Source: a bacterium
GTDB lineage: Bacteria; Patescibacteriota; Patescibacteriia; UBA9934; GWF2-40-263
Assembly (NCBI GenBank): GCA_020057555.1
Contig: JAGVFR010000026.1
Coordinates: 22,631-86,630, forward strand
DNA: 64,000 nt
Reading direction: 5' to 3'
In this document: positions 4,252 through 59,563 of the stretch, piece after piece
Layout of the letters: each line of letters opens with the position of its first letter
Numbering within the stretch: position 1 is the stretch's first letter
Position numbers and translations under genes: made by a program
Notes under the pieces: generated by a model
The model's input: the letters and a program-made list of their open reading frames with translations, nothing else
What the model was told of the DNA's origin: nothing
Database searches by the model: none

Positions 4252-5159
4252 AGCTCACTGATTATTACCCGATCAAGACCTTGCAGGTCTTTTTTGATTT
4301 GGGTTTTTGCGCGTGGAAATTGGTGAGATATAAGTTCAACAGCACGAGTGGTTTGTGATGGGTCGATCTCTATGAGTGTGTAAATGTATCTAGGTAAAAT
4401 ATCCCGTTTTTTATTTATTTGCTTAAACAATCGCCAATACGCCTCAAGACCGTCAGGACCTGCTTGTAATGCGTCTTTTGGTTCGTAGCGAACATCTTTT
4501 TGAAGGGCATCCATCTGGTTGTTTGTGAGATATGGGAGATTGGCGCAAATTATTAGGTATTTGAACGGATAAATTGATGAAACTTGTTGTTTTGAAGACG
4601 CACGTATTGATTCGAATAAGTCAACGATTGGCATTAATAGGTCGCCTTCTCTGAAGTCAATAAGTTCTTCTACATTATGTTTGTGAGCGTTTGTTTTTGC
4701 TACTGAAAGTGCGCGAGGGTTTATATCTACAGCCACAACCGGAATTTTTGTTTCAGATGTAAGTGTGATCGCGATTGCTCCTGACCCAGTTCCTATATCA
4801 GTAAACAGTATGTGTTCTGGATCATTAATATTTGTTGATATATCTAATGCTTCTTGAACAAGCGTTTCAGTTGCTGGACGAGGAATAAGAACAAATGAGT
4901 TAACGAAGAAATTTCTATTGTAAAATTCTTTTTCTCCGATTATGTACGCAACAGGTTCAAATGAACAACGACGTTCGATGAGCGACAATAGTCGTTCCTG
5001 TTGATGTGGTTTTAGAATGTCATTTCCATGTGCAAACAGTCGAGCGCGTGATAAATCCAAAATATACGAAAGTATAACTTCCGCATCAAGCATTGACGAC
5101 TCAACGCCAGCTTTTTTGAGCTTGTTGTTTGCCCATTGAAGAGCTTCGAGGATGGACAT
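4248..5159 (-). CDS. prmC: peptide chain release factor N5-glutamine methyltransferase
   Basis: 303 aa HemK/PrmC architecture. SAM motif DIGTGSGAIAI. Substrate motif reads NLPY instead of canonical NPPY. Confidence 0.85.
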   Translation of the reverse strand: MSILEALQWANNKLKKAGVESSMLDAEVILSYILDLSRARLFAHGNDILKPHQQERLLSLIERRCSFEPVAYIIGEKEFYNRNFFVNSFVLIPRPATETLVQEALDISTNINDPEHILFTDIGTGSGAIAITLTSETKIPVVAVDINPRALSVAKTNAHKHNVEELIDFREGDLLMPIVDLFESIRASSKQQVSSIYPFKYLIICANLPYLTNNQMDALQKDVRYEPKDALQAGPDGLEAYWRLFKQINKKRDILPRYIYTLIEIDPSQTTRAVELISHQFPRAKTQIKKDLQGLDRVIISEL

Positions 5160-5267
5160 AGTAGGGAAGGTCGAAGAGGGCCAAGAAGACCAAAAGGTCC
5201 GAGAAGTTTCAAATGACCGAAAGGTCAGAAAGGTCGAGACAAGTATAGCAGAGTGAAAAATTTATCC

Positions 5268-5306
5268 ATAAAAAGAAAAGCGGCGCCGAACATAGTTCGA
5301 GCGCCG
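5268..5306 (-). terminator. intrinsic terminator of the candidate large ncRNA
   Basis: Minus strand: CGGCGCTCGAAC-TAT-GTTCGGCGCCG stem-loop (5306-5281) followed by CTTTTCTTTTT. Confidence 0.65.
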
Positions 5307-6348
5307 TAAGAAGAGAGAGGAGAGACCGAGTTCGGACTCTCAAGATGACGTGGTTTGCCCAGTGGTAGGGAGTGGGAACGACTCTTTGCGAAACGCTGTT
5401 CAGCATTCAGGATCTCCTTACGGAGCTCACTAAACACTTCACAATATCTCACTTTAAGTCAATTTCCACTCCCGAACCACTCCTTGTCGACATGCAACGC
5501 GCTTTCGTTTGTTGCTTCGTCTAGGGAACTGTTGCTTCCACAACTGGTTTTAAGGTGATGCCCCGAAGAGCTTCTCCAAAAAACTGGTTGTTTTAGCTTG
5601 AGTTTCAGGTTTTCACCTTGACTCCAGACCTTGTAACGGTTGTCGACTTGGCTCTGCAGAGCTATCAACGCCTTTGTCACTGCTCCCTGAAGCTTGCGCT
5701 TTTAGGTAGCGGTTTGGAAGGAGAAGAAAGTCTACAGATGGACTGATCAGTGGTGAGCTTAAGCTCGTGTTTTCACTCAGGTAGAGAGTTTATCCTTTTT
5801 ACAGGACTTATCTCTATTTATTCCTTCTCATTGGTTACCCTTTGAGAACACGATCATCGTTTCACTCAAACACAGAGGTAAACTGTGTCCAAGCTTGACA
5901 ACTTTCATGGACTGATATCCTCGAGGATTAATCGAGGACCACTGGTCTTTGCCGGTTTACACCGAGTCTCAAGTTTTTGAAGCCTGCTATGTGTTTTCGA
6001 TCAGCTATCACAGCTATTTGAACTCGAGTTACCCCAAGCTCACTTCGCTCTGGTGATAAACTAACCTTGCCAGCATTTTGGCTTCGCAACTTGTCCAGCT
6101 TTGTTTACTGATTCGTAGAGCACATTCTCTTGGGAGCCCTTTCGGGTTCTTCAGAAGACGTGTCTACGACACAGTTTCCGCTGGCATGATCCGGTTTTAG
6201 ACCGGCCGGCTTTTTTAAGCCGTTTGCTTGAAGGGTTTGACCAGTTTGCACCGGTACAGCCCTTTTCGCGACCCTCCCGAAGGAGAGTTCAGCCTTCCGA
6301 AGAAGGCCTTGTCTACCAGAGCAACTTACATTGCCTTGGCTGACGGTA
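5272..6348 (-). ncRNA. candidate large (~1.08 kb) structured non-coding RNA, class unknown
   Basis: Bounded by a sigma70-like promoter and an intrinsic terminator, with no credible ORF. Three C(UUCG)G hairpins (6292-6307, 6274-6285, 5560-5571). GAAA-capped hairpin 6134-6149. Further helices at 6191-6205 and 5918-5938. Confidence 0.55.
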
Positions 6349-6354
6349 ATGTTT

Positions 6355-6383
6355 AATTTACTCTTGAAAGAAACGTGTGTCAA
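6355..6383 (-). promoter_or_regulatory. sigma70-like promoter of the candidate ncRNA
   Basis: Minus strand TTGACA (6383-6378), 17-nt spacer, TAAATT (6360-6355). Confidence 0.5.
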
Positions 6384-6419
6384 GAGCTGTAAAATCGCTG
6401 GTTTTTGAAAAACTTGTCT

Positions 6420-6444
6420 ATTTATCCACAAAGTTGTGGATAAA
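6420..6444. promoter_or_regulatory. inverted pair of perfect DnaA-box nonamers (11-bp-arm palindrome)
   Basis: TTATCCACA at 6422-6430 and TGTGGATAA at 6435-6443. The whole TTTATCCACAA-AG-TTGTGGATAAA is palindromic. It lies about 40 bp upstream of the ncRNA -35 box. Confidence 0.45.
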
Positions 6445-6453
6445 TTTAAAAAA

Positions 6454-6524
6454 GAGCGGTTGTGCTATGTCTCCGTGCCAGCGGACTCCTCGCCGCTGTT
6501 CACTTCGACATAGCACAACCGCTC
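6454..6524 (-). repeat. conserved-core hairpin element, copy 1 (acts as prfA terminator)
   Basis: Outer stem GAGCGGTTGTGCTATGTC / GACATAGCACAACCGCTC. Core AACAGCGGCGAGGAGTCCGCTGGCACGGAGACAT on the minus strand. Followed on the minus strand by TTTTTT. Confidence 0.65.
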
Positions 6525-6537
6525 TAATTAACGATCT

Positions 6538-7605
6538 TTATTGATCTAATTGCTCCGCGATTTCAGCTTCTCTTAATGCGGAAAATAATTCATCGAGGCC
6601 GCCATTCATAAAAGTGGTGATATTGTGAAAGTTTTCATTTATACGATGGTCTGTGATTCGATCTTGCGGAAAATTGTATGTTCGAATCTTTTCTGATCTG
6701 TCTCCGGTTCCGATTTGTCCTTTTCGAGCATCACCACGTTCCTTGTGGGCTTTTTCTTGTTCAAAAGCAAACACACGCGCGCGAATAATCGAAAGAGCAC
6801 GTTCTTTGTTTTGTTTTTGTGAACGTTCTTCTTGGCAAGAAGCCATTATTCCAGTTGGAATGTGTGTGATGCGTATTGCCGAGTAGGTTGTGTTTACACT
6901 CTGTCCGCCATGGCCACCTGCTGTTGTTGCCTCGATGTTTAGATCTTCCGGTTTGATTTGCACATCAATTTCTTCAACTTCAGGCAAGATCGCGACTGTT
7001 ACAGTCGATGTATGCACACGACCTTGTTTTTCCGTTTCTGGCACGCGTTGAACTCTATGAACCCCGCTTTCGTATTTGAGTCGGCTATAAACATTATGGC
7101 CTTTGATTGTCAAAATAATTTCTTTGAATCCTCCGATTTCGTTTCTGTTGGATGAAATGAGTTCTGTTTTCCATGCATGTTGTTCTGCATAAAGCATGTA
7201 CATACGCATCAGTTCTGCGGCAAAAAGCGAGGCCTCGTCTCCTCCAGCGCCGGCTCGAATTTCAACGATTGTATTTTTTTTGTCCAGAGGATCAGATGGA
7301 ATAAGCGAATGCAAGAGTTCTTTTTCAAGTAACGGGAGCTTTGCTTCCAGAGTTTCAATTTCAGTTTGCGCAAGTTCATGCATTTGTTCGTCTGTTGATT
7401 CTTTGAGTGTTTCTTTTGCTCCGTTTAAATCTACCATGACTTTTTCATATCGTTTTGCAACGTCCATGACTTCTTTTAGATCTGAATATTCTTCACTTAC
7501 TTCACGCATTTTTTTTGGATTAGAAAGAACTTCGGGTGAAGATAACTTCAATTCGAGTTCTTGGAATCGGTTTTTTGTTGATTGTAGTTTATCGAGTAAA
7601 GACAT
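6538..7605 (-). CDS. prfA: peptide chain release factor 1
   Basis: 355 aa with GGQ motif (GGHGGQSVNT). Codon-recognition tripeptide region reads RVQRVPETEKQGRVHTS (P-x-T type, RF1-like). Confidence 0.9.
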   Translation of the reverse strand: MSLLDKLQSTKNRFQELELKLSSPEVLSNPKKMREVSEEYSDLKEVMDVAKRYEKVMVDLNGAKETLKESTDEQMHELAQTEIETLEAKLPLLEKELLHSLIPSDPLDKKNTIVEIRAGAGGDEASLFAAELMRMYMLYAEQHAWKTELISSNRNEIGGFKEIILTIKGHNVYSRLKYESGVHRVQRVPETEKQGRVHTSTVTVAILPEVEEIDVQIKPEDLNIEATTAGGHGGQSVNTTYSAIRITHIPTGIMASCQEERSQKQNKERALSIIRARVFAFEQEKAHKERGDARKGQIGTGDRSEKIRTYNFPQDRITDHRINENFHNITTFMNGGLDELFSALREAEIAEQLDQ

Positions 7606-8089: not shown

Positions 8090-9181
8090 ATGACACAAAT
8101 TACAGAATTCAATTATCATCTTCCAAGAGAGTTAATCGCACAATGCTCTGTCCAGCCTCGCGACCAATCACGGCTCATGGTTTTGGATAAACAAACAGGG
8201 AAGTTGAACCACAAGAAATTTTTTGAGATTGTTGATGAGTTGAAAACAGGTGATGTACTTGTATTTAATGATACAAAAGTTTTTAGAGCCCGGCTCAAGA
8301 CGCAAAATGGAATTGAGATATTTTTGTTGCGTGCGCGGGAAGACGATATTTGGGAAGTTTTGGCGCGTCCGGGAAAGAAGTTGCAGGTTGGACAAACACT
8401 TTGTATTGAACATGAAACAGAAAAACTTTGTGGAGAAGTGATGTCAAAACAATCAGACGGAACTGTTTTGATAAAATTTGATCGCGTACCAAATGACGTA
8501 ATCGCGTTTGCAAATATATACGGAGAGATTCCTATTCCTCCTTATGTGAAAAATATACCGGAGCGATTGGAAGATTATCAAACGATCTATGCAAAAGAGA
8601 CAGGTTCTGTTGCGGCGCCAACAGCCGGTTTTCACTTCACAGAAGATCTTATGGAAGAATTAAAATCAAAAGGCGTGCAATTCGAATTTGTAACACTTCA
8701 CGTTGGAATTGGAACTTTTCGTCCAATGAAAACAGAAACGATCGAGGAACATGAAATGCACAGCGAGTTTGTTTCTGTCTCAAAAGAGACAGCAGATCGG
8801 ATCAATCAAGCAAAAAAAGATGAGCGACGCGTGATCGCTGTTGGAACGACAACAGTTCGTACACTTGAAGGAGTCGCAAATTATCCCCTGAGCGAAGGTC
8901 AATTAGGCCTTCGACAGGCTCAGGCAATAATTGACCGAAGTCGAATGGGTAATTTTTATCTTCCAGATGGTTTTACAGGCGACGTTAATCTATTTATCAA
9001 ACCAGGCTTTGATTTCAAAATAATTGATGGGCTTATAACGAATTTTCATTTACCAAAATCAACATTACTGGTTTTGGTTTCGGCTTTTGCTGGAAGAGAA
9101 AATGTTTTGCGCGCGTATGAAGAAGCAGTTGCGCAACAGTATCGTTTTTTTTCCTTTGGCGACGCGATGTTTATTGCTTGA
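8090..9181 (+). CDS. queA: S-adenosylmethionine:tRNA ribosyltransferase-isomerase
   Basis: 363 aa with QueA blocks TAGFHFT, TLHVGIGTFRP, AVGTTTVRTLE, ITNFHLPKSTLL and YRFFSFGDAMFI. Carries an in-frame repeat-element insertion at about 8885-8950. Confidence 0.9.
   Translation: MTQITEFNYHLPRELIAQCSVQPRDQSRLMVLDKQTGKLNHKKFFEIVDELKTGDVLVFNDTKVFRARLKTQNGIEIFLLRAREDDIWEVLARPGKKLQVGQTLCIEHETEKLCGEVMSKQSDGTVLIKFDRVPNDVIAFANIYGEIPIPPYVKNIPERLEDYQTIYAKETGSVAAPTAGFHFTEDLMEELKSKGVQFEFVTLHVGIGTFRPMKTETIEEHEMHSEFVSVSKETADRINQAKKDERRVIAVGTTTVRTLEGVANYPLSEGQLGLRQAQAIIDRSRMGNFYLPDGFTGDVNLFIKPGFDFKIIDGLITNFHLPKSTLLVLVSAFAGRENVLRAYEEAVAQQYRFFSFGDAMFIA
8885..8950 (+). repeat. MITE-like palindromic element inserted in-frame in queA (copy A)
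   Basis: Arms CCTGAGCGAAGG / CCTTCGACAGGCTCAGG. The 26-mer GCCTTCGACAGGCTCAGGCAATAATT (8907-8932) is identical to 57312-57337 and 25/26 identical to 34816-34841. Confidence 0.7.
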
Positions 9182-10868: not shown

Positions 10869-11456
10869 ATGCAAATTGATGCCAAACTTGTTGCTCAACT
10901 TCGCGCGCAAACTGGTGCGGGTATGATGGATGCCAAGACTTCTCTTGAAGAGTCTGGTGGAGATTTAGAAAAAGCCGCGGAAATATTGCGCAAAAAAGGT
11001 GTTGTGAAAGCTGGGAAAAAATCTGATCGTGAAACTCACGAAGGACGTGTTCACGCTTACATTCATTCAAACGGGAAACTCGGCGCGCTTGTGGAAGTTT
11101 TGTGTGAAACGGATTTTGTTGCGCGTAATGAAGTGTTCGTTGATTTTTGCAATGATATTGCAATGCATGTTAGCGCTTGTGATCCATTGTATGTTTCGCG
11201 CGTTGATGTTCCAGTGGAAATGGTTGAAAAAGAAAAACAAATTTATCTTGAAGAAATGACAGGGCAGTCAAAGCCGGCTGATGTGATGGAAAAAATAATT
11301 GAAGGTAAATTGAACAAATGGTTTTCAGAAATTGTTCTTTTGGAACAGCAGTTTATAAAAGATGAGGACAAAACCATTGAAGAGTATTTGAAAGAAAAGA
11401 TTGTTTCGCTTGGGGAGAATATGCAGATAAAGCGGTTTTGCAGGTTAAGTATTTAA
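10869..11456 (+). CDS. tsf: translation elongation factor Ts (short form)
   Basis: 195 aa with N-terminal UBA-like LRAQTGAGMMDAKTSL and a conserved ETDFVARN block. Confidence 0.9.
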   Translation: MQIDAKLVAQLRAQTGAGMMDAKTSLEESGGDLEKAAEILRKKGVVKAGKKSDRETHEGRVHAYIHSNGKLGALVEVLCETDFVARNEVFVDFCNDIAMHVSACDPLYVSRVDVPVEMVEKEKQIYLEEMTGQSKPADVMEKIIEGKLNKWFSEIVLLEQQFIKDEDKTIEEYLKEKIVSLGENMQIKRFCRLSI

Positions 11457-11465
11457 GATATTGAA

Positions 11466-11498
11466 AGCCGGCTGTTGACAAAACAGTCGGCTTTTGTT
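11466..11498 (+). terminator. intrinsic terminator after tsf
   Basis: 10-bp stem AGCCGGCTGT / ACAGTCGGCT, loop TGACAAA, then TTTGTT. Confidence 0.7.
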
Positions 11499-11736
11499 AT
11501 TTATAATCGTCGTTTGGCTTGGGTAATGTGCTCAAGCGTGCGGCATGTTCTTTGGTTGCTGGGATGGAAAGACGGCTGTTCATTCAGTTGTTAATCCAAA
11601 AATGACCGGCAATACGGAGGGTCGAAAATGACAAAGTACAGTTTTCCTGCATGGTTCAAGGATTTGCAGGAACGTTAACATTGATAAGACTCCAGGTGAC
11701 AAGATATTCCTTGTGAAGCATTTCAATAGGGAGATC

Positions 11737-11994
11737 ATGTCCGAAGACGTAATAGTCGAGATGGACAAGTTCGGCTATCGTCCAGCAACTCACATCGAAG
11801 CATACGAGTTCCAGAAGAAGAATCCTGATCTTCAGCGTCAGTTTCTGCTCATCGCTCTTGGTTCGTTCGTGGTGATCGACTGCGGCCGGTGCTTCACTGT
11901 GTTGGGCGGTAATTCCGGCAGGCGCGTCTTCGACAGCCTCTGGTTCGACCGCAGGTGGCTTGCCGACTGCCGCTTTCTGTTTGTCCGCAAGTAA
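11737..11994 (+). CDS. hypothetical protein (orphan, composition-atypical)
   Basis: ORF 11713..11994. Start refined to ATG 11737 behind AGGGAGA. Visibly more G+C than neighbours, with its own terminator. No family named. Confidence 0.5.
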   Translation: MSEDVIVEMDKFGYRPATHIEAYEFQKKNPDLQRQFLLIALGSFVVIDCGRCFTVLGGNSGRRVFDSLWFDRRWLADCRFLFVRK

Positions 11995-12009
11995 GGCTCT
12001 TTGTTCTCT

Positions 12010-12031
12010 GACCCGATCTCGGGTCTTTTTT
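12010..12031 (+). terminator. intrinsic terminator
   Basis: GACCCGA-TC-TCGGGTC followed by TTTTTT. Confidence 0.7.
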
Positions 12032-12103
12032 AATTCCTTGTGTTAAAATGTTATCAATGAAGAACCACGGCTAAAACCGTGGGCTACAATAATTTATTTT
12101 TTT

Positions 12104-13111
12104 ATGCTCCGCATTGCAATCAATGGCTTTGGCCGAATTGGCCGCACAACACTTAAAGTCGGTTGGAAACGAAAAAATGTTGAGTTTGTCGCGATCAATG
12201 ATTTAACAGAACCGAAAATTCTCGCGCATTTACTCAAATACGATTCAGTGTTTCGAGCGTGGACTGTTCCAGTCAAAGCAGGAAAAGATTTTTTGTTGAT
12301 TGATAAGAAAAAAATTCCAGTGTTTACGCAAACTGATCCTGCTAAAATTCCATGGGGTGCTCACAAAGTTGATGTTGTGATTGAATCAACAGGAAGATTT
12401 ACAAAAACAGAAGACGCGAAAAAACATTTGCAAGCCGGCGCAAAGCGAGTTGTCATAAGTGCGCCATCAGATGACGCGCCGACTTTTCTAATGGGCGTGA
12501 ATCACAAAGATTGTCGAAAAGATCAAACAATCATCAACAATGCTTCATGCACAACAAATTCTGTCGGACCAGTTGCCCAGATTTTGGTTGAAGCGTTTGG
12601 TGTGAAAAAAGCAATGCTTTCAACAATTCATTCTGTTACAGCAGAACAAAACATTGTTGACAGTATTCCTCCAAAACTTCATCTTGATTTGCGTAGAGCT
12701 CGAAGCGCGCTTGTTAATCTTGTTCCGACAAGCACTGGCGCGGCAAAAGCAACAACTCAAGCAATACCATCACTTAAAAATAAATTTGATGGAATAGCTA
12801 TTCGCGTTCCAACGATTGATGTTTCGCTTACGGATTTTACTTTTCTTCTTTCAAAACAAACAACCGTTGAGGAAGTGAATCAAGTATTTCGCGATGCGGC
12901 GCGCGATCAACGTTGGAAAAATATCGTCGGAGTTACAGACGAGCCTCTTGTTTCAACTGATTTCATTGGTTCAACATTTGGAACTGTTGTTGATCTTGGA
13001 ATGACACGTTTAGTTGATGGCGATCTTTTGAAAGTTCTCGCGTGGTATGACAATGAGTGGGGATATTCGGAGAGGTTGATGGATATGGTGCAGTATGTTG
13101 GGAAGTTATAA
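12104..13111 (+). CDS. gap: glyceraldehyde-3-phosphate dehydrogenase
   Basis: 335 aa with INGFGRIGR NAD-binding start and the catalytic ASCTTNS motif. Confidence 0.9.
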   Translation: MLRIAINGFGRIGRTTLKVGWKRKNVEFVAINDLTEPKILAHLLKYDSVFRAWTVPVKAGKDFLLIDKKKIPVFTQTDPAKIPWGAHKVDVVIESTGRFTKTEDAKKHLQAGAKRVVISAPSDDAPTFLMGVNHKDCRKDQTIINNASCTTNSVGPVAQILVEAFGVKKAMLSTIHSVTAEQNIVDSIPPKLHLDLRRARSALVNLVPTSTGAAKATTQAIPSLKNKFDGIAIRVPTIDVSLTDFTFLLSKQTTVEEVNQVFRDAARDQRWKNIVGVTDEPLVSTDFIGSTFGTVVDLGMTRLVDGDLLKVLAWYDNEWGYSERLMDMVQYVGKL

Positions 13112-34780: not shown

Positions 34781-34815
34781 GTTTCCCTCCGAAGATAAAC
34801 ATATCATTGTAGTTT

Positions 34816-34841
34816 GCCTTCGACAAGCTCAGGCAATAATT
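34816..34841 (+). repeat. MITE-like element right arm (copy C)
   Basis: GCCTTCGACAAGCTCAGGCAATAATT, 25/26 identical to copies at 8907-8932 and 57312-57337. Lies in the 74-bp divergent region. Confidence 0.6.
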
Positions 34842-36252: not shown

Positions 36253-37139
36253 AAACAAGTTGGTTTCGAAATTGTGCGGAGTTAATTATCTTGATCGCTA
36301 TCATTGCCACGGTTTACACACAACGCGTGGGGATTTCGCAGTGGTTTCGAGAAATGATGGAGCCGTCTGTGCCAGAGGCAGTGGAGTTTGAAAAAATAAC
36401 AGAGGAAAAGGAAGAAGGTAGTCGCGGGCTTCAGCCCGCGCAAGCGCCAGTCATCCCGAGTGCCGTCGATGGATCTGAAGAAAAAATATTGCCTGAACCT
36501 GTTGAAGGCAGTATAGATGATGTAGTTGTCACTTCGACAAGCTCAGTGGATAAAATTTTGCCTGTTGAAATCAATCTCGCTGTTCCTTTTACATCTCAAG
36601 CTCCGCACGCGAATTGGGATTTACCATATAAAGAAACATGCGAAGAAGCATCGCTCTATATGGTTGATGTTTATTATAAAGGAGTAAAAGCGGGGAAGAT
36701 TGCGGCTGATACTGCGGACGAGGAGATTAAAAAAATTATAGAATTTGAAAAAGAAATTTTTGGATATTATGAAGACACAACCGCAGAACAAGTTGGAATT
36801 CTTGCGGAAATGATGTATGGTCACGAAAAAATTGAACTGATCGAAAATCCAACTGTTGAACAAATTAAAAAACATGTTGCTGAAGGACATCCGGTTATTG
36901 TTCCTGCGGCAGGACGAGAACTTGGTAATCCGAATTTCACAGCGCCTGGTCCGATATATCACATGTTAGTGATTCGCGGATACACAAAAGATGGTAAATT
37001 CATCACAAATGATCCGGGCACAAAAAACGGCGAAGCATATGTTTACGATTTTGACACAGTTATGAACGCGATGCATGATTGGAACAATGGTGACGAGATC
37101 ACGGAAGGAAAAAAGGTAGTACTAATTGTTTATCCATAA
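36249..37139 (+). CDS. C39-like peptidase domain protein, membrane-anchored
   Basis: N-terminal TM and a low-complexity linker. VPFTSQAPHANWDLPYKETCEEASLYM matches the Peptidase_C39_2-type N-terminus. Confidence 0.6.
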   Translation: MKTSWFRNCAELIILIAIIATVYTQRVGISQWFREMMEPSVPEAVEFEKITEEKEEGSRGLQPAQAPVIPSAVDGSEEKILPEPVEGSIDDVVVTSTSSVDKILPVEINLAVPFTSQAPHANWDLPYKETCEEASLYMVDVYYKGVKAGKIAADTADEEIKKIIEFEKEIFGYYEDTTAEQVGILAEMMYGHEKIELIENPTVEQIKKHVAEGHPVIVPAAGRELGNPNFTAPGPIYHMLVIRGYTKDGKFITNDPGTKNGEAYVYDFDTVMNAMHDWNNGDEITEGKKVVLIVYP

Positions 37140-54371: not shown

Positions 54372-55148
54372 ATGGACGAATTAATGAACGAACTCAAGCA
54401 TTTAGGTTTATCTGACAAAGAGGCGTCTGTTTATCTTGCATCGCTTGAACTTGGCCCAGCTTCTGTGCAAGACATATCGCACAAAGCAAAAATAAATCGC
54501 GCGACAACATACGTGATGATAGAGGTATTGTCAGGACGTGGACTTCTTTCAACTTTTGTAAAAGGGAAGAAACGTTTTTACGCGCCAGAAAGTCCTGATC
54601 GATTGATTTCCATTTTACGCGTGCAACAGAAAGAACTTGAAGAAAAAGAAAAAGAGTTTGCAAAGTCGCTTCCATTGTTGCTCGCGCTTTATAATGCTGA
54701 AGGAGCAAAGCCGCAGATTCGATATTTGGAAGGGCCAGAAGGATTGCGATCTTTGCGTCAGACTTTTGAAAAATTGAATGGGGAATTTGTTCAGATTCTT
54801 TCGATTGACGATGCGTTGGCAACAAGAGAACTAATGGAAGAAAGTCCGAAACATGTTTCCGCTCTTCGACAAGCAAGCACTTCTTATAGAATTTTGGCAG
54901 TTTTAGATAAGAAGGAACCAAAAGATATTCCGGAGATGGGAACAGGCGAAATTAGAATGGTTCCGTTTTTGGAGTTTCCAATGCACGGTGAGATTACCGT
55001 GCGAGGAAATCATGTGTTTTTGTTTTCATATCGTTCAGCAGTTTTGGCTGTTGTGATTGTAAGTAAAGAGGTCGCTGATGCGGCTCGGGCATTGTTTGAG
55101 CTTGCTTGGAAAGGAGCAAAAGATTTTCAATCAAGAATGGATAAATAA
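54372..55148 (+). CDS. TrmB-family transcriptional regulator
   Basis: N-terminal LGLSDKEASVYLASLELGPASVQDISHKAKINRATTYVMIEVL wHTH, typical of TrmB. Confidence 0.7.
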   Translation: MDELMNELKHLGLSDKEASVYLASLELGPASVQDISHKAKINRATTYVMIEVLSGRGLLSTFVKGKKRFYAPESPDRLISILRVQQKELEEKEKEFAKSLPLLLALYNAEGAKPQIRYLEGPEGLRSLRQTFEKLNGEFVQILSIDDALATRELMEESPKHVSALRQASTSYRILAVLDKKEPKDIPEMGTGEIRMVPFLEFPMHGEITVRGNHVFLFSYRSAVLAVVIVSKEVADAARALFELAWKGAKDFQSRMDK

Positions 55149-55526
55149 CAAAATAGGACCGAGTGTGGTCCGTTGTTGAGAGAGATAAGATATGAGAGAA
55201 GCGCAACAATGTGCGCGAGAGCTTTTTTATGTGAAGCTAGAAAAGGAGCTACGATCCGAGAGCACAATGCATGTGCGGTTGGAGAAACGCCGGATTGAAC
55301 CGACGCGGGTTGAGTTCGTTTGCGTACGTTTTGAGAACCATTCCTGCTTCCATTTTATTACCTCGGACTTTGCCGGCTTGGCCTGCCGGCCAGGCATCTC
55401 ATCCAAAACTTTTAGGATGAGAATATACTCTAGCAATTTTTGTTGATTTTGTCAAGCCAATTGGACTGACTAAGAAGAATTTGGAGAATTTGTTGATATT
55501 TATTAACATATTTTGTCCTGTGACCA

Positions 55527-55555
55527 TTGACAAGCAAAAGATTATTTGATAGTTT
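55527..55555 (+). promoter_or_regulatory. candidate promoter of a small RNA
   Basis: TTGACA (55527-55532), 17 nt, TAGTTT (55550-55555). Confidence 0.35.
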
Positions 55556-55561
55556 GGTCGG

Positions 55562-55707
55562 TTCACTCAAGAAGTGGGCAATGAGGAAGAGAGGACATAA
55601 AACCGACCAACTCCCAATGGCCGGTTTTATCTTAGTCGAAACATGGTACATGGGTTCATGTGTGTGATAAACAAAAAGACGTCCTGTAAACAGGGCGTCT
55701 TTTTTTT
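55562..55707 (+). ncRNA. candidate ~145-nt small RNA, class unknown
   Basis: Lies between the candidate promoter and the terminator at 55678-55707. 5' helix GGTCGGTT / AACCGACC. No ORF. Confidence 0.3.
55673..55707. terminator. bidirectional intrinsic terminator
   Basis: AAAAA-GACGTCCTG-TAAA-CAGGGCGTC-TTTTTTTT (9-bp stem with one G-U). Confidence 0.65.
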
Positions 55708-55717
55708 GGGAAAGAGC

Positions 55718-55837
55718 TATAGCCATCACATTATAAAATGGGACTTTAGACGACTTACCTGTGGATGGGATGCGAAGGACAAGCAGACCGCCACAGGAAA
55801 GGATGGATAAATCCTATTTCATAATGTGATGGCTATA
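55718..55837. repeat. 120-nt hairpin/MITE-like element with 17-bp perfect terminal inverted repeat
   Basis: TATAGCCATCACATTAT (55718-55734) / ATAATGTGATGGCTATA (55821-55837). Inner helices CCTGTGG/CCACAGG (55758-55764/55791-55797) and AGGAT/ATCCT. Confidence 0.6.
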
Positions 55838-55861
55838 CAGTCTTGCGACCGCGCGGTCGTT

Positions 55862-55957
55862 GGACATTACATTATGATTCCGTACTTATAAAGATGAAAA
55901 ACAAGCAGGTTGCCATTTTTAATTTTTTATGGAGTATGGAACCATAATGTAATGTCC
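55862..55957. repeat. 96-nt hairpin/MITE-like element with 20-bp terminal inverted repeat (1 mismatch)
   Basis: GGACATTACATTATGATTCC (55862-55881) / GGAACCATAATGTAATGTCC (55938-55957). Shares CAT(C/T)ACATTAT with the neighbouring element. Confidence 0.6.
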
Positions 55958-56186
55958 ACATTCCTCTCACAGGTCTTCATTGCAAGCATGGAGCAATGGA
56001 AAACTGTGATTGGAGGGCGACGTTGGAAAGATATCCTTCGTCGCCCAAGAGTTTGCCTTCTCGGCTGGAGGCTCTGCTTCCTCTTGGCTCACCGTTTTAG
56101 GAAGGTGACTCCTTTTTGTCGCGTGTTTCAGATTGTAGTGGAATGTGTTAACTCACTTTGCCCTCCTAAATGTTTGGTTTTTTTGG

Positions 56187-57176
56187 CTACGAGAGCATGG
56201 CCTGGAGCTTGAGCTCGGCCATACGGATCACGCCAGGAACCGTCCAGTTCTTGATCGCACGGACGTCCGCGGCGGTCAGACCAGAGTTGCGAATTTTGAT
56301 AGCCGCGCGACCGAGTTGACGGTACTCGTCCTTGCTCACGCCCGGGACGATCTTGCCCTGAACGCGGCGTGGCGGACGAACCAGACCTAGACCGCATGCG
56401 AGCAAACTTCCGTCGCGCAGGGTTTCGACGTGCGAGCGAGTTTCGGCGATTCTTGCGTCAACGCGTTCTTCGGCCTCGCGCTGAAGCCGTGCTTCCTCGG
56501 TCGCTCTCTCGTCCGCGAACATATTCTCGATTGCCGCCATTGCCTCGGGCACGGTCTGCGATCCGAGCGGCAGAACGGTCTGTGCGCACTTGGGGCAGAA
56601 CGACTTCTGAAGGAGACCATGAACGGTCACCTCCTCGAGCCTCTTGACCCCGATAGCGCGCATGATTGTGCTGAACACGACCGCGACCCTTGCCTCGTTC
56701 ATCGGAACGAGTCGCAGACACTGTCCGAACTTTCCCTGACAGACCACGTGGTCCACGCCGTCCTTCGCAATGACGAGTCCCGGGGTGAACCTGACCTCGG
56801 GCTCGAGAACGGGCTCGGGCGCTGGAGCGGGTGCGGCGGGAGCCTTCTTGGTCTCGGCCTTGTGGACCTTGACCTTCGCCGGCTTCGGTGTCTCGACCTT
56901 CGGAGCCGGGGACGGGTTGGCCTCGGTCTTGGGCGAGACGATCTCCTTGGCCATGATTTCGACAGCCTCGATCGAGGAGCAATCCCTCCAGTTCTGGCCC
57001 GTGACCTCGATGATGTGCATGGCGCGACCGAGCTCGACGTGGGATGCGAGGAAGTTGATCGAGCCCTCGAAGTGACGCTCAACCACACGGCCGAGCTCTT
57101 CGAGTTCGCCAGGGAGACCGGGGCGGGAGTCGTCCTGCGGGATGATCTGAAGTCCGGGAGCCATCTGCGCGACCAT
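56187..57176 (-). CDS. hypothetical protein, very GC-rich orphan (Pro/Ala-rich linker)
   Basis: ORF 56187..57197. Start refined to ATG 57176 behind GGAGG. Strong G/C preference at third codon positions. Linker PSPAPKVETPKPAKVKVHKAETKKAPAAPAPAPEP. No family recognised. Confidence 0.6.
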   Translation of the reverse strand: MVAQMAPGLQIIPQDDSRPGLPGELEELGRVVERHFEGSINFLASHVELGRAMHIIEVTGQNWRDCSSIEAVEIMAKEIVSPKTEANPSPAPKVETPKPAKVKVHKAETKKAPAAPAPAPEPVLEPEVRFTPGLVIAKDGVDHVVCQGKFGQCLRLVPMNEARVAVVFSTIMRAIGVKRLEEVTVHGLLQKSFCPKCAQTVLPLGSQTVPEAMAAIENMFADERATEEARLQREAEERVDARIAETRSHVETLRDGSLLACGLGLVRPPRRVQGKIVPGVSKDEYRQLGRAAIKIRNSGLTAADVRAIKNWTVPGVIRMAELKLQAMLS

Positions 57177-57289
57177 GCGTAACCTCCAAAAAAGCATGTG
57201 TCCTGGGTCCCGAACCTACACCACGTAGGAACGGATCAATTTATAGAACCTATCGGTCCTACGACCTTAGCAGTTTGGAAATTGTTATA

Positions 57290-57338
57290 CCTTGAGCGAA
57301 GGAAAATTACTGCCTTCGACAGGCTCAGGCAATAATTT
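57290..57338 (+). repeat. MITE-like palindromic element (copy E) between the two GC-rich genes
   Basis: CCTTGAGCGAAGG...GCCTTCGACAGGCTCAGGCAATAATT. The 26-mer is identical to the copy inside queA. Confidence 0.7.
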
Positions 57339-57463
57339 GCCGGAGTCGGAGGGTTAGATTCAATTTCTAAACTATTAAGATCGTTCCGGGTGGCGTGTTC
57401 AGGGAAAGAAATCCCTTTACACACCACCCGGAAGATATAGAGCGGAGAGAGCGGAAAGAACTA

Positions 57464-58003
57464 CTAGCCGTTGGCGACCTTGCGGGCCTTGCCCTTGACG
57501 GTCACGATCGGCGTCTCGACGGCGGCGGGAGCCTCGGCGGGCGTGGAGACCGGAGCCGGTGTCACGGCGACCGCGGCCTTGAGCTCGGCCACAACCTGCG
57601 GGCCGACCTGCTCACCGATCGGGGTCGAGGCGAGAGCAGGCTTGGCGGGTGCGGAAGCGGCGGGCTTGGGCGTGAGCTTCGGCGCGGGCTTCTCGGACTT
57701 GGACTTCGGGAAGTAGGACATCGTGTTGACCATGTCCTTGAAGTCCAGGAGCGGTGCGAGGGCCGAGTTCTGCCCCATGCCGTGCTCGATGTTGTCGATG
57801 GCCTTCGTGAGAAGGGCCTTTCCGACGTCTTCGATGCAGCGCATGGTGTAGTACTCGGTGCCGACGTAGTCGTCGCGCTTCTCCGGGTCGAGGCCGAGCA
57901 CCTCGCACGCCTTCGCGAAGATCTTGTCGCGCAACTCCCTTTCGAAGATGCGTCCGTAGAGCGGGGAGGGATCGGTCGAGGGGGCCTGGAAGCTGGTCTT
58001 CAT
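57464..58003 (-). CDS. hypothetical protein, very GC-rich orphan (Pro/Ala-rich C-terminal half)
   Basis: 179-codon ORF behind AAGGAGA. Codon third positions are almost all G/C near the 3' end. 45/60 G+C hand-counted at 57481-57540. No family recognised. Confidence 0.6.
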   Translation of the reverse strand: MKTSFQAPSTDPSPLYGRIFERELRDKIFAKACEVLGLDPEKRDDYVGTEYYTMRCIEDVGKALLTKAIDNIEHGMGQNSALAPLLDFKDMVNTMSYFPKSKSEKPAPKLTPKPAASAPAKPALASTPIGEQVGPQVVAELKAAVAVTPAPVSTPAEAPAAVETPIVTVKGKARKVANG

Positions 58004-58464
58004 TGAAATTCTCCTTTTCGATGGCCTGCCTCCAGCCGAACCTGACCCCTGTGGTCAAATCCGCTTTCAGCTCGATGACGGCAAATGTTGTCACCATTGA
58101 GCTGAATCGGATTTTCCCAGAAATACGGAGGTAAAGTGTGACCCATTGACCTGCCCGAAGGCTGGTGTAGATCGTGAGTCTCTTGCGTATGAATTCAGTC
58201 AGCCTAGGCCGAATGAACACATTTGAGACTCTCTGCCAATGTCGTCTTGTAAGACTCGATTGGACAGCTTTACTCTCTCCTCCGTGTTTCTGGGTCGGTT
58301 TTTAACAAAAAACCGGTTGTCGTATATATCTGATCTTTTTGGCAAGAGTCAGACGTACACAACAACCGGTTCTTTTATTCAAAGAATGGCTATTGACTAC
58401 CTTTATACCGTGGGTAGTGCACGGACTCTCTCCCAAAAGTCCTATTTGTAAGAATCATCTTAAC
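58004..58464 (-). promoter_or_regulatory. ~460-nt structured 5' leader of the GC-rich gene pair
   Basis: 16-bp helix 58279-58294 / 58116-58131 (one mismatch) encloses 147 nt. Adjacent hairpin 58057-58114. Internal C(UUCG)G-type loop. Upstream terminator-like hairpin 58311-58371. Confidence 0.4.
58304..58371 (-). terminator. terminator/attenuator-like long hairpin inside the leader
   Basis: AACCGGTTGT (58362-58371, read on the minus strand) pairs with ACAACCGGTT (58311-58320), followed on the minus strand by TTTTTGTT. Confidence 0.45.
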
Positions 58465-58470
58465 GGTCAT

Positions 58471-58499
58471 ACTATATCATATTCTGTCAAAACTGTCAA
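58471..58499 (-). promoter_or_regulatory. sigma70-like promoter for the island transcript
   Basis: Minus strand TTGACA (58499-58494), 17 nt, TATAGT (58476-58471). Confidence 0.5.
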
Positions 58500-58573
58500 G
58501 ACCCGTATGTCGGTGAGGTTAGAATTTTAGCTAAAATTAGACAAAAGCTACTGTCAGGATTTTTTAGACTTAT

Positions 58574-58618
58574 CACTCCGTCACTTCTTCACTCCGTCAC
58601 TTCTTCACTCCGTCACTT
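58574..58618 (+). repeat. 16-bp tandem repeat, 2.8 copies
   Basis: CACTCCGTCACTTCTT x2 plus CACTCCGTCACTT, ending 21 nt before the holB start. Confidence 0.85.
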
Positions 58619-58639
58619 TGTGTTACACTAAAATCTGTT

Positions 58640-59563
58640 ATGGAACCTTTTTCTAAGACGATCGGCCACAAAACGGCACGACAAGTGTTTTTGCGCATGA
58701 TAGAAAACAACCAGCTTCCGCATGCGATTCTTTTTGTTGGTCCAAAACATGTTGGGAAAACTCATCTTGTCACAGAATTGATCCAGCATCTTTTTCATAC
58801 AATACGTCATCCATCGCTCATTTCCGATGTTAGTCTTTTAGCAAGAGAAGTTGATCCAAAAACAGGCAAGAAAAAATTCGCTATTTCTGTTAAACAAGTT
58901 CGTGCTCTTGTTGAACGTCTTTCAATGACTCCAATGGAAGGAAATTGGAAAATCGCGTTCATTCAAGAAGCTGATCGGCTTTCGATCGGAGCCGCGAATG
59001 CGCTTCTCAAAACACTTGAAGAACCAAAAGGAAACGCTCTTATAATTTTACGCGCGCCAAGTGTTGAATCTGTTTTGCAAACAATCGCGTCTCGTTGTCA
59101 GATTTTTCGACTGTCGCCTGTTGCCAAATCAGAAATTATTCCAGCGCTTCAAAAACGTGGGCTTTCAAAAACAGAAGCAGATGAAATTTCAGAGCGATCT
59201 TTTGGTTGTCCGGGAATTGCGATTCGATATATTCAAGATAGTGAAATGCGCGCGCGCAAAGAAACAGCGATCGCGCAAGTCGAAACTTTAATGAACGCGT
59301 CGCTTCCAGAGCAATTTAGATTAGTTTTTGATCTCATTCCAAAAACAGAAATTGACAAGTCTATTGCACTTTCTCATTTGCTCGATGATTGGTCAGAAGT
59401 GTTGCGCGCGAATTTATTAAAAACAGTCGCTGAAAAGCAAACAGCAACCGTGAATAAAACCGCTCGCGTTCTAAATTGTATTCAAACTGTTCGTAGCGCG
59501 ATTTCTCACAACATAAATCCTCATTTATCTTTAGAACATATTTTTTTATCAACACATGTATGA
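58640..59563 (+). CDS. holB: DNA polymerase III subunit delta prime
   Basis: HAILFVGPKHVGKT P-loop-like region and AANALLKTLEEP motif. Confidence 0.8.
   Translation: MEPFSKTIGHKTARQVFLRMIENNQLPHAILFVGPKHVGKTHLVTELIQHLFHTIRHPSLISDVSLLAREVDPKTGKKKFAISVKQVRALVERLSMTPMEGNWKIAFIQEADRLSIGAANALLKTLEEPKGNALIILRAPSVESVLQTIASRCQIFRLSPVAKSEIIPALQKRGLSKTEADEISERSFGCPGIAIRYIQDSEMRARKETAIAQVETLMNASLPEQFRLVFDLIPKTEIDKSIALSHLLDDWSEVLRANLLKTVAEKQTATVNKTARVLNCIQTVRSAISHNINPHLSLEHIFLSTHV

Follow-up and report, generated by a model that had tools for sequence, protein, structure and literature searches.

Several kinds of bacterial leader and noncoding RNA bear on the element described here. In terminator/antiterminator attenuators and riboswitch platforms, such as the T-box, pyr and trp leaders, a promoter-proximal intrinsic terminator lies within a long leader, and the 5′ arm of the terminator has an exclusive alternative pairing and is the more constrained arm. 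Ribosomal-protein autoregulatory leaders (L10, S15 and L20) carry a covarying domain in the 5′ untranslated region (UTR) that is tied to one specific gene, share a helix resembling a Shine–Dalgarno (SD):anti-SD duplex and have a narrow, lineage-specific distribution. Large orphan RNAs (raiA, OLE and the GOLLD/ROOL type) are multi-helix junctions with strong covariation, many invariant nucleotides, no homology to a known class and no assigned biochemical role. Each of these likenesses recurs, the alternative pairing as a prediction from folding, in a structured leader on the minus strand of contig JAGVFR010000026.1, within the 64,000-nt stretch of DNA analysed here (the window), where ~460 nt separate a promoter from the AUG (58003) of ORF1, one of two GC-rich open reading frames (ORFs) at the locus.

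This leader is very probably a functional structured RNA. At a probability of roughly 55%, it acts in cis as the 5′ leader of an ORF1(–ORF2) operon, is equipped with an attenuator and represents a vertically inherited type, not described before, from one clade of Ca. Uhrbacteria/Parcubacteria; each separate mechanistic detail proposed below carries less confidence than this model as a whole. Judged by sequence comparison, the leader consists of three separable RNA modules, A, B and C. Its segment 58464–58004 has a minimum free energy (MFE) of −179.5 kcal/mol, compared with −120.8 ± 6.5 kcal/mol for dinucleotide shuffles (z = −9.0), and 0 of 100 shuffles folded as well. A scan of the whole window against Rfam 15 at the gathering threshold, which took in riboswitches, leaders, ribozymes, small RNAs (sRNAs), RNase P, SRP, tmRNA, 6S and Y RNA, gave 0 hits. 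The leader itself, searched with lax filters at E ≤ 10, returned only chance matches to microRNAs, small nucleolar RNAs and the GibS sRNA, all at ≤21 bits and far below threshold. Limited literature searches on structured RNAs of Uhrbacteria and of the Candidate Phyla Radiation (CPR) yielded nothing relevant and no description of the leader; together with the Rfam searches, they turned up no lineage-specific regulatory RNA described for CPR bacteria.

Related loci came from about ten independent assemblies of Ca. Uhrbacteria/Parcubacteria: Ca. Uhrbacteria metagenome-assembled genomes (MAGs; L002 and L008), JGI contigs (L010–L012), ENA and Logan contigs (L003–L007, L013, L014 and L019) and, found by way of an ORF2 relative, a Ca. 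Parcubacteria MAG that is more distant and has a background GC of ~55–58% (L020). The genome and metagenome DNA scans used a module C pattern, and relatives with only module B may have been missed. Where contigs are long enough, the gene order is M16 peptidase, GlyRS, RRF, BNR protein, holB, leader, ORF1, (ORF2) and TrmB. This synteny holds in all six such loci (L002, L008, L010, L013, L019 and L020), from which vertical inheritance of the element follows.

Module B is a four-way-junction domain closed by a 16-bp helix, P1 (58294–58279 with 58131–58116), and folds with z = −8.5. One mismatch persists in P1 in each lineage, at different places (C·A in the window, G·G in L013 and L014, A·C in L020). 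RNAalifold, run on nine sequences aligned with MAFFT, gives a consensus of 64 pairs, and compensatory changes occur at 13 of these; an explicit pair count on this alignment likewise gives 13/64, against 4.7 ± 1.6 in shuffled alignments (0/500 reach it) and 0–3 in slid controls. With L020 added through a covariance model, the count is 18/64 (shuffled 6.1 ± 1.8, 0/500; slid controls at most 3) and 97.4% of the alignment cells are paired; this second alignment is fitted to the model and leans towards it, and the independent MAFFT result agrees. Compensatory variation reaches 5 of the 7 pairs in the helix GAGUCUC/GAGACUC. Five G·U pairs of module B would be A·C on the other strand, which identifies the minus-strand RNA as the structured species.

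The domain is also highly conserved in sequence. Across the nine sequences, 93 of 179 columns are invariant, including one whole arm (CACGAUCUACACCAGCCYUCGGGCAGGUCA) and the strands GGAGGAGAGAGUAAAGC and CUUUACCUCCGUAU. In local alignments, the nucleotide identity of module B to the window is 98% in L002, 96% in L010, 94% in both L011 and L019, 92% in L008, 81% in L013 and 80% in L014; the corresponding values for the first 300 nt of holB are 90, 90, not available, 93, 86, 70 and 72%, and ORF1 reaches 65–82% across the same seven loci. In L020, module B is still 80% identical (154 bits, E = 1e-35), against protein identities of 55% for HolB and 26% for ORF1. Module B is conserved above the neighbouring essential holB and far above ORF1, and these alignments indicate that it is under strong purifying selection on both sequence and base pairing. 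Every locus that spans the stretch has it, in a single copy by covariance-model search, and always with the conserved promoter on one side and an ORF1 homologue on the other; this co-occurrence is what ties the leader to ORF1. The inner part of P1 forms an SD:anti-SD-like duplex, GGAGG:CCUCC, and the GGAGAGAGU motif recurs in module A, both of which hint at recognition by the ribosome or a protein. A 69-aa ORF had been called over module B in L014; a coding role was rejected because of 1-nt and 8-nt indels and the compensatory pair changes. Similarly, a likeness of the motifs GAGAGUCCGUGC and CCAGAAAC to RNase P, SRP or tmRNA was discarded, as it had no covariance-model support and no ARAGORN hit.

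Since module B lies downstream of the terminator of module A, it cannot control that terminator. The promoter/terminator scan detected no terminator after module B and the 53 nt nearest the SD are unstructured, leaving the domain with no recognisable expression platform; having neither a promoter nor a terminator of its own, it is not an independent gene. Its distance from the SD ranges from ~75 to 320 nt among loci, owing to inserted hairpins. The most economical, and to us most likely, reading is that module B serves as a cis-acting platform for a trans-acting factor, which would set mRNA stability, processing or translation. Candidate factors would be the 30S subunit, contacted by way of the GGAGG:CCUCC helix, or a protein, for which ORF1 itself is a possibility.

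Both the window's subclade and the distant L020 carry module A. A stable stem-loop (−40 kcal/mol with its U6 tract), directly followed by the U-tract, stands between the promoter and ORF1 as expected of an intrinsic terminator. In the alignment, 96% of its cells are paired, with 2 compensatory pairs and 8 one-sided wobble-compatible changes, and L020 retains the hairpin with a U5 tract. A simple terminator scanner missed the stem at 58371–58311 because its pattern allows only a continuous stem around a 3–8-nt loop. The 5′ arm of the terminator holds GGUUGUUGUGU, for which CAAUAGCC (58395–58388) is an alternative partner. Within the subclade, 0 of 29 columns vary in the 5′ arm and loop versus ~12 of 36 in the 3′ arm, as expected for a segment with two alternative partners. 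For nascent RNA up to the terminator loop, the MFE structure is a multi-branch fold that pairs the purine box with the terminator apex and an upstream segment with GGUUGUUGUGU. In L008 and L020, as in the window, nascent RNA reaches its MFE in this architecture, which is built through different sequences and is informed by two independent lineages only. The box-to-apex helix is GAGAGUC:GACUCUU in the window and GGGAGAGAG:CUCUUUCCC in L020, and the second antiterminator helix is CAAUAGCC:GGUUGUUG and ACACAAC:GUUGUGU, respectively. Folding gives the purine box another partner besides the terminator apex, the upstream pyrimidine tract, which could sequester it as GGACUUUU:GAGAGUCC in the window and as AUGAUUCUU:GAGAGUCAU in L020.

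On these folding models, module A is plausibly a three-element attenuator. By default, the upstream pyrimidine tract would hold the purine box, and the 27-bp hairpin with its U-run would terminate transcription near 58305. A free box would pair with the pyrimidine apex of the terminator 5′ arm and CAAUAGCC would pair with GGUUGUUG; both pairings together would form a multi-branch antiterminator and allow RNA polymerase to read on.

The leader is preceded by a sigma-70-type promoter (TTGACA at 58499–58494, TATAGT at 58476–58471) that outranks all other promoter-like sites within 55000–58800, and its −35 hexamer is unchanged in every locus aligned or read across it. From the promoter spacing, transcription would start near 58464. 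The −35 region is also a direct repeat, TTGACAG-N3-TTGACAG (58499–58484), with a 10-bp period; it is retained in the distant L013, L014 and L020 and may be the operator of a regulator. In L013, the position of the 5′-terminal hairpin is occupied by a UUAC/GUAA hairpin. Conservation of modules A and C is patchier than that of module B. In the large hairpin of module C, the base (GCUGAAAGCGGAU strand) is conserved and the tip differs in every lineage, so that the hairpin spans 58–140 nt overall; it is absent in L014, and in L002 a repetitive extragenic palindrome (REP)-like element is inserted into its tip. Insertions in relatives, whether REP-like or other hairpins, are confined to sites between modules or to hairpin tips. 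The last 53 nt before the start codon (58004–58056) have a folding z of +0.16, and the SD is therefore not visibly sequestered. The 5′-terminal hairpin and module C may be stabilising structures, with the former protecting the 5′ end.

Table 1. Positions of the leader elements and of the two downstream ORFs in the window.
Feature	Position	Strand	Remarks
Sigma-70-type promoter TTGACA-17-TATAGT with TG extension	58471–58499	−	11/12 consensus positions
Module A	58464–58300	−	5′ hairpin, pyrimidine tract, purine box, small hairpin, terminator hairpin and U-run
5′-terminal small hairpin UAAGA-UGAU-UCUUA	58449–58462	−	From folding
Pyrimidine tract GGACUUUU	58442–58435	−	Can pair with purine box
Purine box UUGGGAGAGAGUC	58436–58424	−	Invariant in subclade and L020
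Possible 10-codon upstream ORF (uORF), GUG..UAG (MHYPRYKGSQ)	58390–58422	−	Overlaps hairpin Pa
Hairpin Pa	ACUACC 58418–58413 with GGUAGU 58401–58396	−	Retained in L020 as GCUACC/GGUAGC
Intrinsic-terminator-like hairpin	58304–58376 (stem 58371–58311, ~27 bp; U-run 58312–58307)	−	z = −9.7
Module B, four-way-junction domain, 179 nt	58116–58294	−	P1, P1b and three arms including invariant arm CACGAUCUACACCAGCCUUCGGGCAGGUCAAUGGGUCA
Module C	58114–58004	−	Hairpin, small covarying hairpin, CUGGAGGCA motif, SD
Module C hairpin	58057–58114	−	AAAUCCG-A-UUCAGC with GCUGAA-AG-CGGAUUU base; z = −4.5
Small hairpin GACC-ACAGG-GGUC	58056–58044	−	Covaries, GAUC/GAUC in L007
Conserved CUGGAGGCA motif	58035–58027	−	
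SD GGAG	58014–58011	−	AUG at 58003
ORF1, 179 aa	57464–58003	−	GC3 0.91
ORF2, ~328 aa	56187–57173	−	GC3 0.77

An earlier, sequence-only reading of this stretch had located the promoter, the long hairpin with its U-run, the 16-bp helix with one mismatch, the abutting third hairpin and the SD, and all five are present where it placed them. Its suggestion that the long hairpin could be an attenuator is upheld as plausible by retention in L020 and by the recurring alternative fold, and its failure to assign a riboswitch class agrees with the Rfam scans. The two comparative checks it proposed also came out in its favour: the leader was recovered upstream of homologues of the 179-aa protein, and the predicted helices are backed by compensatory changes. 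The nested helices it described, GAGUCUC/GAGACUC and GCC-UUCG-GGC, belong to the consensus fold, but the domain is really a four-way junction with three arms. What stands of its cis-regulatory, riboswitch-like element is a genuine, conserved and structured 5′ leader; a riboswitch is unproven, as the genes are ORFs without recognisable relatives (ORFans) and module B has no expression platform. The view of the leader as a single compact switch is not supported, because the terminator precedes the domain closed by the 16-bp helix, and because that domain has neither a terminator nor an SD-masking helix of its own and tolerates insertions on its borders with the other modules.

The leader lies within a 3.5-kb island (55150–58640) between a TrmB-like gene and holB, in a window of ~40% GC; the island holds ORF1 and ORF2. 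GC content at third codon positions (GC3) is 0.30 ± 0.04 for the 46 other ORFs of the window, which puts ORF1 at z = 15 and ORF2 at z = 12. Values of 0.77–0.96 for the two ORFs hold in all lineages (window, L002, L008, L013, L014 and L020), and ORF1 stays at 0.88–0.96 in every lineage, including L020 with its background GC3 of 0.66–0.69. In the comparison with L002, synonymous divergence (dS) is 0.46, against 0.42–0.70 for the flanks. The ratio of nonsynonymous to synonymous divergence (dN/dS) is 0.4–0.9 for ORF1 versus 0.06–0.18 for holB and trmB. A GC3 excess in every lineage, together with dS like that of the flanks, indicates that the composition is actively maintained and is not the fading trace of a transfer. 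The operon had been called foreign-looking; composition agrees with this, but its history does not, with dS equal to that of the flanks and a position fixed across genomes. An assembly chimera or recent foreign insertion was excluded by the same dS values and by the same arrangement in about ten independent assemblies. A phage, plasmid or defence origin was likewise rejected, as tblastn and blastn gave no hits in phage or plasmid collections and none in viral contigs, PADLOC gave no hits and PHROGs only insignificant ones (E ≥ 0.09).

Neither protein has a meaningful match in Pfam, PHROGs, NCBIfam, PADLOC or PDB sequences; the sole NCBIfam match of ORF1, pneumo_PspA, is negligible (14.9 bits versus a cutoff of 850). 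In the AlphaFold2 model of ORF1, four helices make up the N-terminal domain, and a Pro/Ala-rich tail, which ends in RKVANG, is disordered. ORF2, which is absent in L008 and L013, has four conserved Cys and a Lys/Pro/Ala-rich linker, and its AlphaFold2 model is of low confidence; fold searches gave only uninformative helical-bundle and coiled-coil matches. Homologues are very few, with 8 for ORF1 among 5.8 billion clusters and 15 matches to an ORF2 profile among 1.84 billion representatives. At the C-terminus of ORF1 (57464–57490), an R-x-(V)-A-N-G motif is conserved even at 26% identity (L020), and the distant ORF2 relatives P0015, P0017 and P0023 have R-R-A-(A/N)-N-G-G-(A/S)-(F/S)-G near their C-termini; the two motifs may be a shared processing or recognition signal. 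That ORF1 and ORF2 are paralogues was rejected on comparison. Plus-strand shadow ORFs over the two GC-rich genes were ruled out by the pattern of GC at the three codon positions, the SD and the conserved protein ends.

The surrounding DNA has further features. Three tandem copies of a 16-nt unit, TCACTCCGTCACTTCT (58573–58620), precede the start codon of holB by about 20 nt, with other short repeats at this place in relatives; no plus-strand promoter for holB was detected. A second conserved promoter-like site, TTGACA-17-TAGAGT (55455–55427, minus strand), is followed ~270 nt later by a terminator-like hairpin (55171–55156). The minus-strand segment 55150–55455 may be an sRNA unit; it has no Rfam hit, and 1-nt indels among relatives argue against coding. 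A tRNA-like T-arm, GGUUCAAUCC, at ~55300 was dismissed because it is not conserved in relatives. Long hairpins in the same transcription unit as the leader lie at 57384–57433 (22-nt arms, directly after the ORF1 stop), 57261–57284 with 57361–57384, 55861–55958 (26-nt arms) and 55718–55837 (29-nt arms, 96–97% identical in L002 and L010), along with a bidirectional terminator at 55670–55707; the presence of the extra hairpins at 55640–55960 and 57261–57433 varies among relatives. A REP-like hairpin, CCTGAGCCTGTCGAAGGC...CCTTCGCTCAAGG, is dispersed over the window (57285–57354, 8881–8950, 34815–34841 and 36483–36513) and over L002 (5844–5908, 1254–1331 and 6630–6710); the copy at 57285–57354 sits between ORF1 and ORF2, and those at 8881–8950 and 36483–36513 lie inside long ORFs. 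ARAGORN found no tRNA or tmRNA in the window, whose stretches 5159–6538 and 11456–12104 have no long ORFs.

Several observations weigh against a cis-acting leader with an attenuator. We infer the start site, the termination point and read-through alike. The terminator fold of full-length RNA exceeds the antiterminator in stability by ~11 kcal/mol, and in the subclade the hairpin that sequesters the box is weakened by changes of AGGAC to AAGAC or GAAAC. Module A is dispensable, being replaced by an unrelated hairpin in L013 and absent in L014, where the promoter is followed by ~20 nt, module B and ORF1. Relatives tolerate insertions of ~20–200 nt between the modules, which speaks against one integrated switch. 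The covariation counts come from ~8–9 distinct sequences of one clade, and the shuffles ignore phylogeny, making the significance approximate. Finally, the invariance of module B, including the stems of the invariant arm, also fits an RNA with a function of its own.

This last point leads to a different explanation, in which module B and/or the ~160-nt module A transcript is a functional RNA in its own right, acting as a stable trans-acting noncoding RNA or as a ribonucleoprotein (RNP) with ORF1/ORF2, with RNase III perhaps releasing module B by cleavage at the long P1 helix. The conservation of module B exceeds that of the essential gene next to it and, by a wide margin, that of the proteins under its supposed control; an entire arm shows no variation even in its stems, and P1 is a long, near-perfect duplex with its one persistent mismatch. 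Module B always accompanies ORF1, even where ORF2, module A or module C is missing; module A has its own promoter-to-terminator unit; and the disordered Lys/Arg/Pro/Ala-rich tails and the Cys4 motif look nucleic-acid-binding. However, module B lacks both a promoter and a terminator of its own, its processing is a supposition, and RNA binding by ORF1/ORF2 is a guess, given AlphaFold2 models of low to moderate confidence and no fold match. We regard such an RNA as possible but unlikely. More speculative is its specific form, in which module B would be the RNA subunit of a lineage-specific RNP with ORF1 (and ORF2) and the whole transcript would be under RNA-level selection; we give this a somewhat smaller chance. 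If true, it would explain why no part of the locus is better conserved than the RNA while the proteins evolve fast, and why GC3 is kept at 0.77–0.96, against 0.30 in the window and 0.66–0.69 in L020, with neutral sites saturated. A metabolite or ion riboswitch, with module B or the junction of module A as a small-ligand aptamer controlling ORF1/ORF2, appears improbable. Module B does have an aptamer-like complex junction fold within the 5′ UTR, with many invariant unpaired and junction nucleotides and with covariation at 18 of 64 pairs, and the terminator/antiterminator layout of module A is typical of expression platforms; orphan riboswitch candidates without an Rfam match exist. But module B comes after the terminator, with no expression platform abutting it, a free SD and a spacing to the SD that inserted hairpins stretch from ~75 to 320 nt, and module A offers a competing fold but no definable aptamer. 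Nor do the downstream genes, helical/disordered ORFans with no enzyme or transporter signature, form a coherent metabolic or transport association, and the known distribution is one narrow clade and one locus.

Ribosome-mediated attenuation, in which translation of the uORF with the purine box as its SD decides terminator formation, is very unlikely for our leader. The GUG has a GGGAG 7 nt ahead of it; in the window, this SD and the start codon fall inside the antiterminator helix, and the subclade's 3/3 uORF substitutions, UAG to UAA among them, all affect third positions and are synonymous. Against this, a 3/3 synonymous outcome has a chance probability of only ~0.04–0.1, and the RNA folds also place the three sites in loops or at wobble positions. 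In L020 the purine box is conserved and the uORF peptide is not, with no start codon at the right distance and a sole nearby ORF that is unrelated; the leader peptide is doubtful for this reason, whereas hairpin Pa, which is conserved, is supported. Least credible of all is passive structure, that is, palindromes like REPs or miniature inverted-repeat transposable elements (MITEs), or generic mRNA stabilisers, gathered in a long intergenic spacer. The genome does spread REP-like hairpins, some of them inside the leader in relatives, and the whole island is rich in hairpins of at least 20 bp. Yet module B is single-copy, strand-specific and constrained above its coding flanks, with many invariant unpaired nucleotides and compensatory pairs, and inserted repeats are limited to sites between modules or hairpin tips. 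A self-BLAST of the island against the window returned a repeat only for 57285–57354 and none for the leader. A cis-acting leader of the ORF1(–ORF2) operon remains our preferred interpretation.

Under this interpretation, the leader would be a well-supported CPR regulatory RNA, with a 180-nt four-way junction, 18 covarying pairs, a candidate attenuator and a defined gene partner. Conservation at the locus is inverted: the RNA ranks above an essential replication gene, and its downstream proteins are among the fastest-evolving in the locus. The comparison of sequences suggests that selection here acts chiefly on the RNA rather than on the proteins. The GC3 excess of ORF1 and ORF2 offers a test case for codon composition held against mutational bias, be it by mRNA selection, biased gene conversion or another process. 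The covariance model and alignments of module B could become a family description and allow surveys of Parcubacteria metagenomes.

Set beside the known systems, the leader differs from each in part. Unlike T-box, pyr and trp leaders, it matches neither the T-box nor any other Rfam family and lacks a conserved leader peptide, and its largest conserved domain, module B, is downstream of the terminator. In contrast to the situation in L10, S15 and L20 leaders, the downstream proteins are fast-evolving ORFans (dN/dS 0.4–0.9) instead of conserved RNA-binding proteins; module B is also much larger, a 180-nt four-way junction that does not overlap the real SD, and its binding of a protein is hypothetical. 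Relative to raiA, OLE and the GOLLD/ROOL-type RNAs, with which it shares no sequence or covariance-model similarity, module B is embedded in a 5′ UTR and is not a free-standing gene, and it was recovered from one Parcubacteria clade (~10 assemblies). The four-way-junction form of the hairpin ribozyme is, like module B, a four-way junction, and the sTRSV hairpin ribozyme (CCAGAGAAACACACG...GUAUAUUACCUGG) resembles P1 (CCCAGAAACACGG...CCGUAUUUCUGGG), which we take to be a coincidence. A hairpin ribozyme was rejected, because in P1 the two strands pair as a regular helix, the strand corresponding to loop B is shorter by three nucleotides, neither a loop A nor a cleavage site can be seen, and no ribozyme family came up in the Rfam scans at E ≤ 10. 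By analogy, the nearest counterparts are attenuators for module A and autoregulatory leaders or large orphan RNAs for module B. We rate the fold of the leader as new and its pattern of conservation as unusual, within a kind of element, the structured cis-acting leader/attenuator, that is already known.

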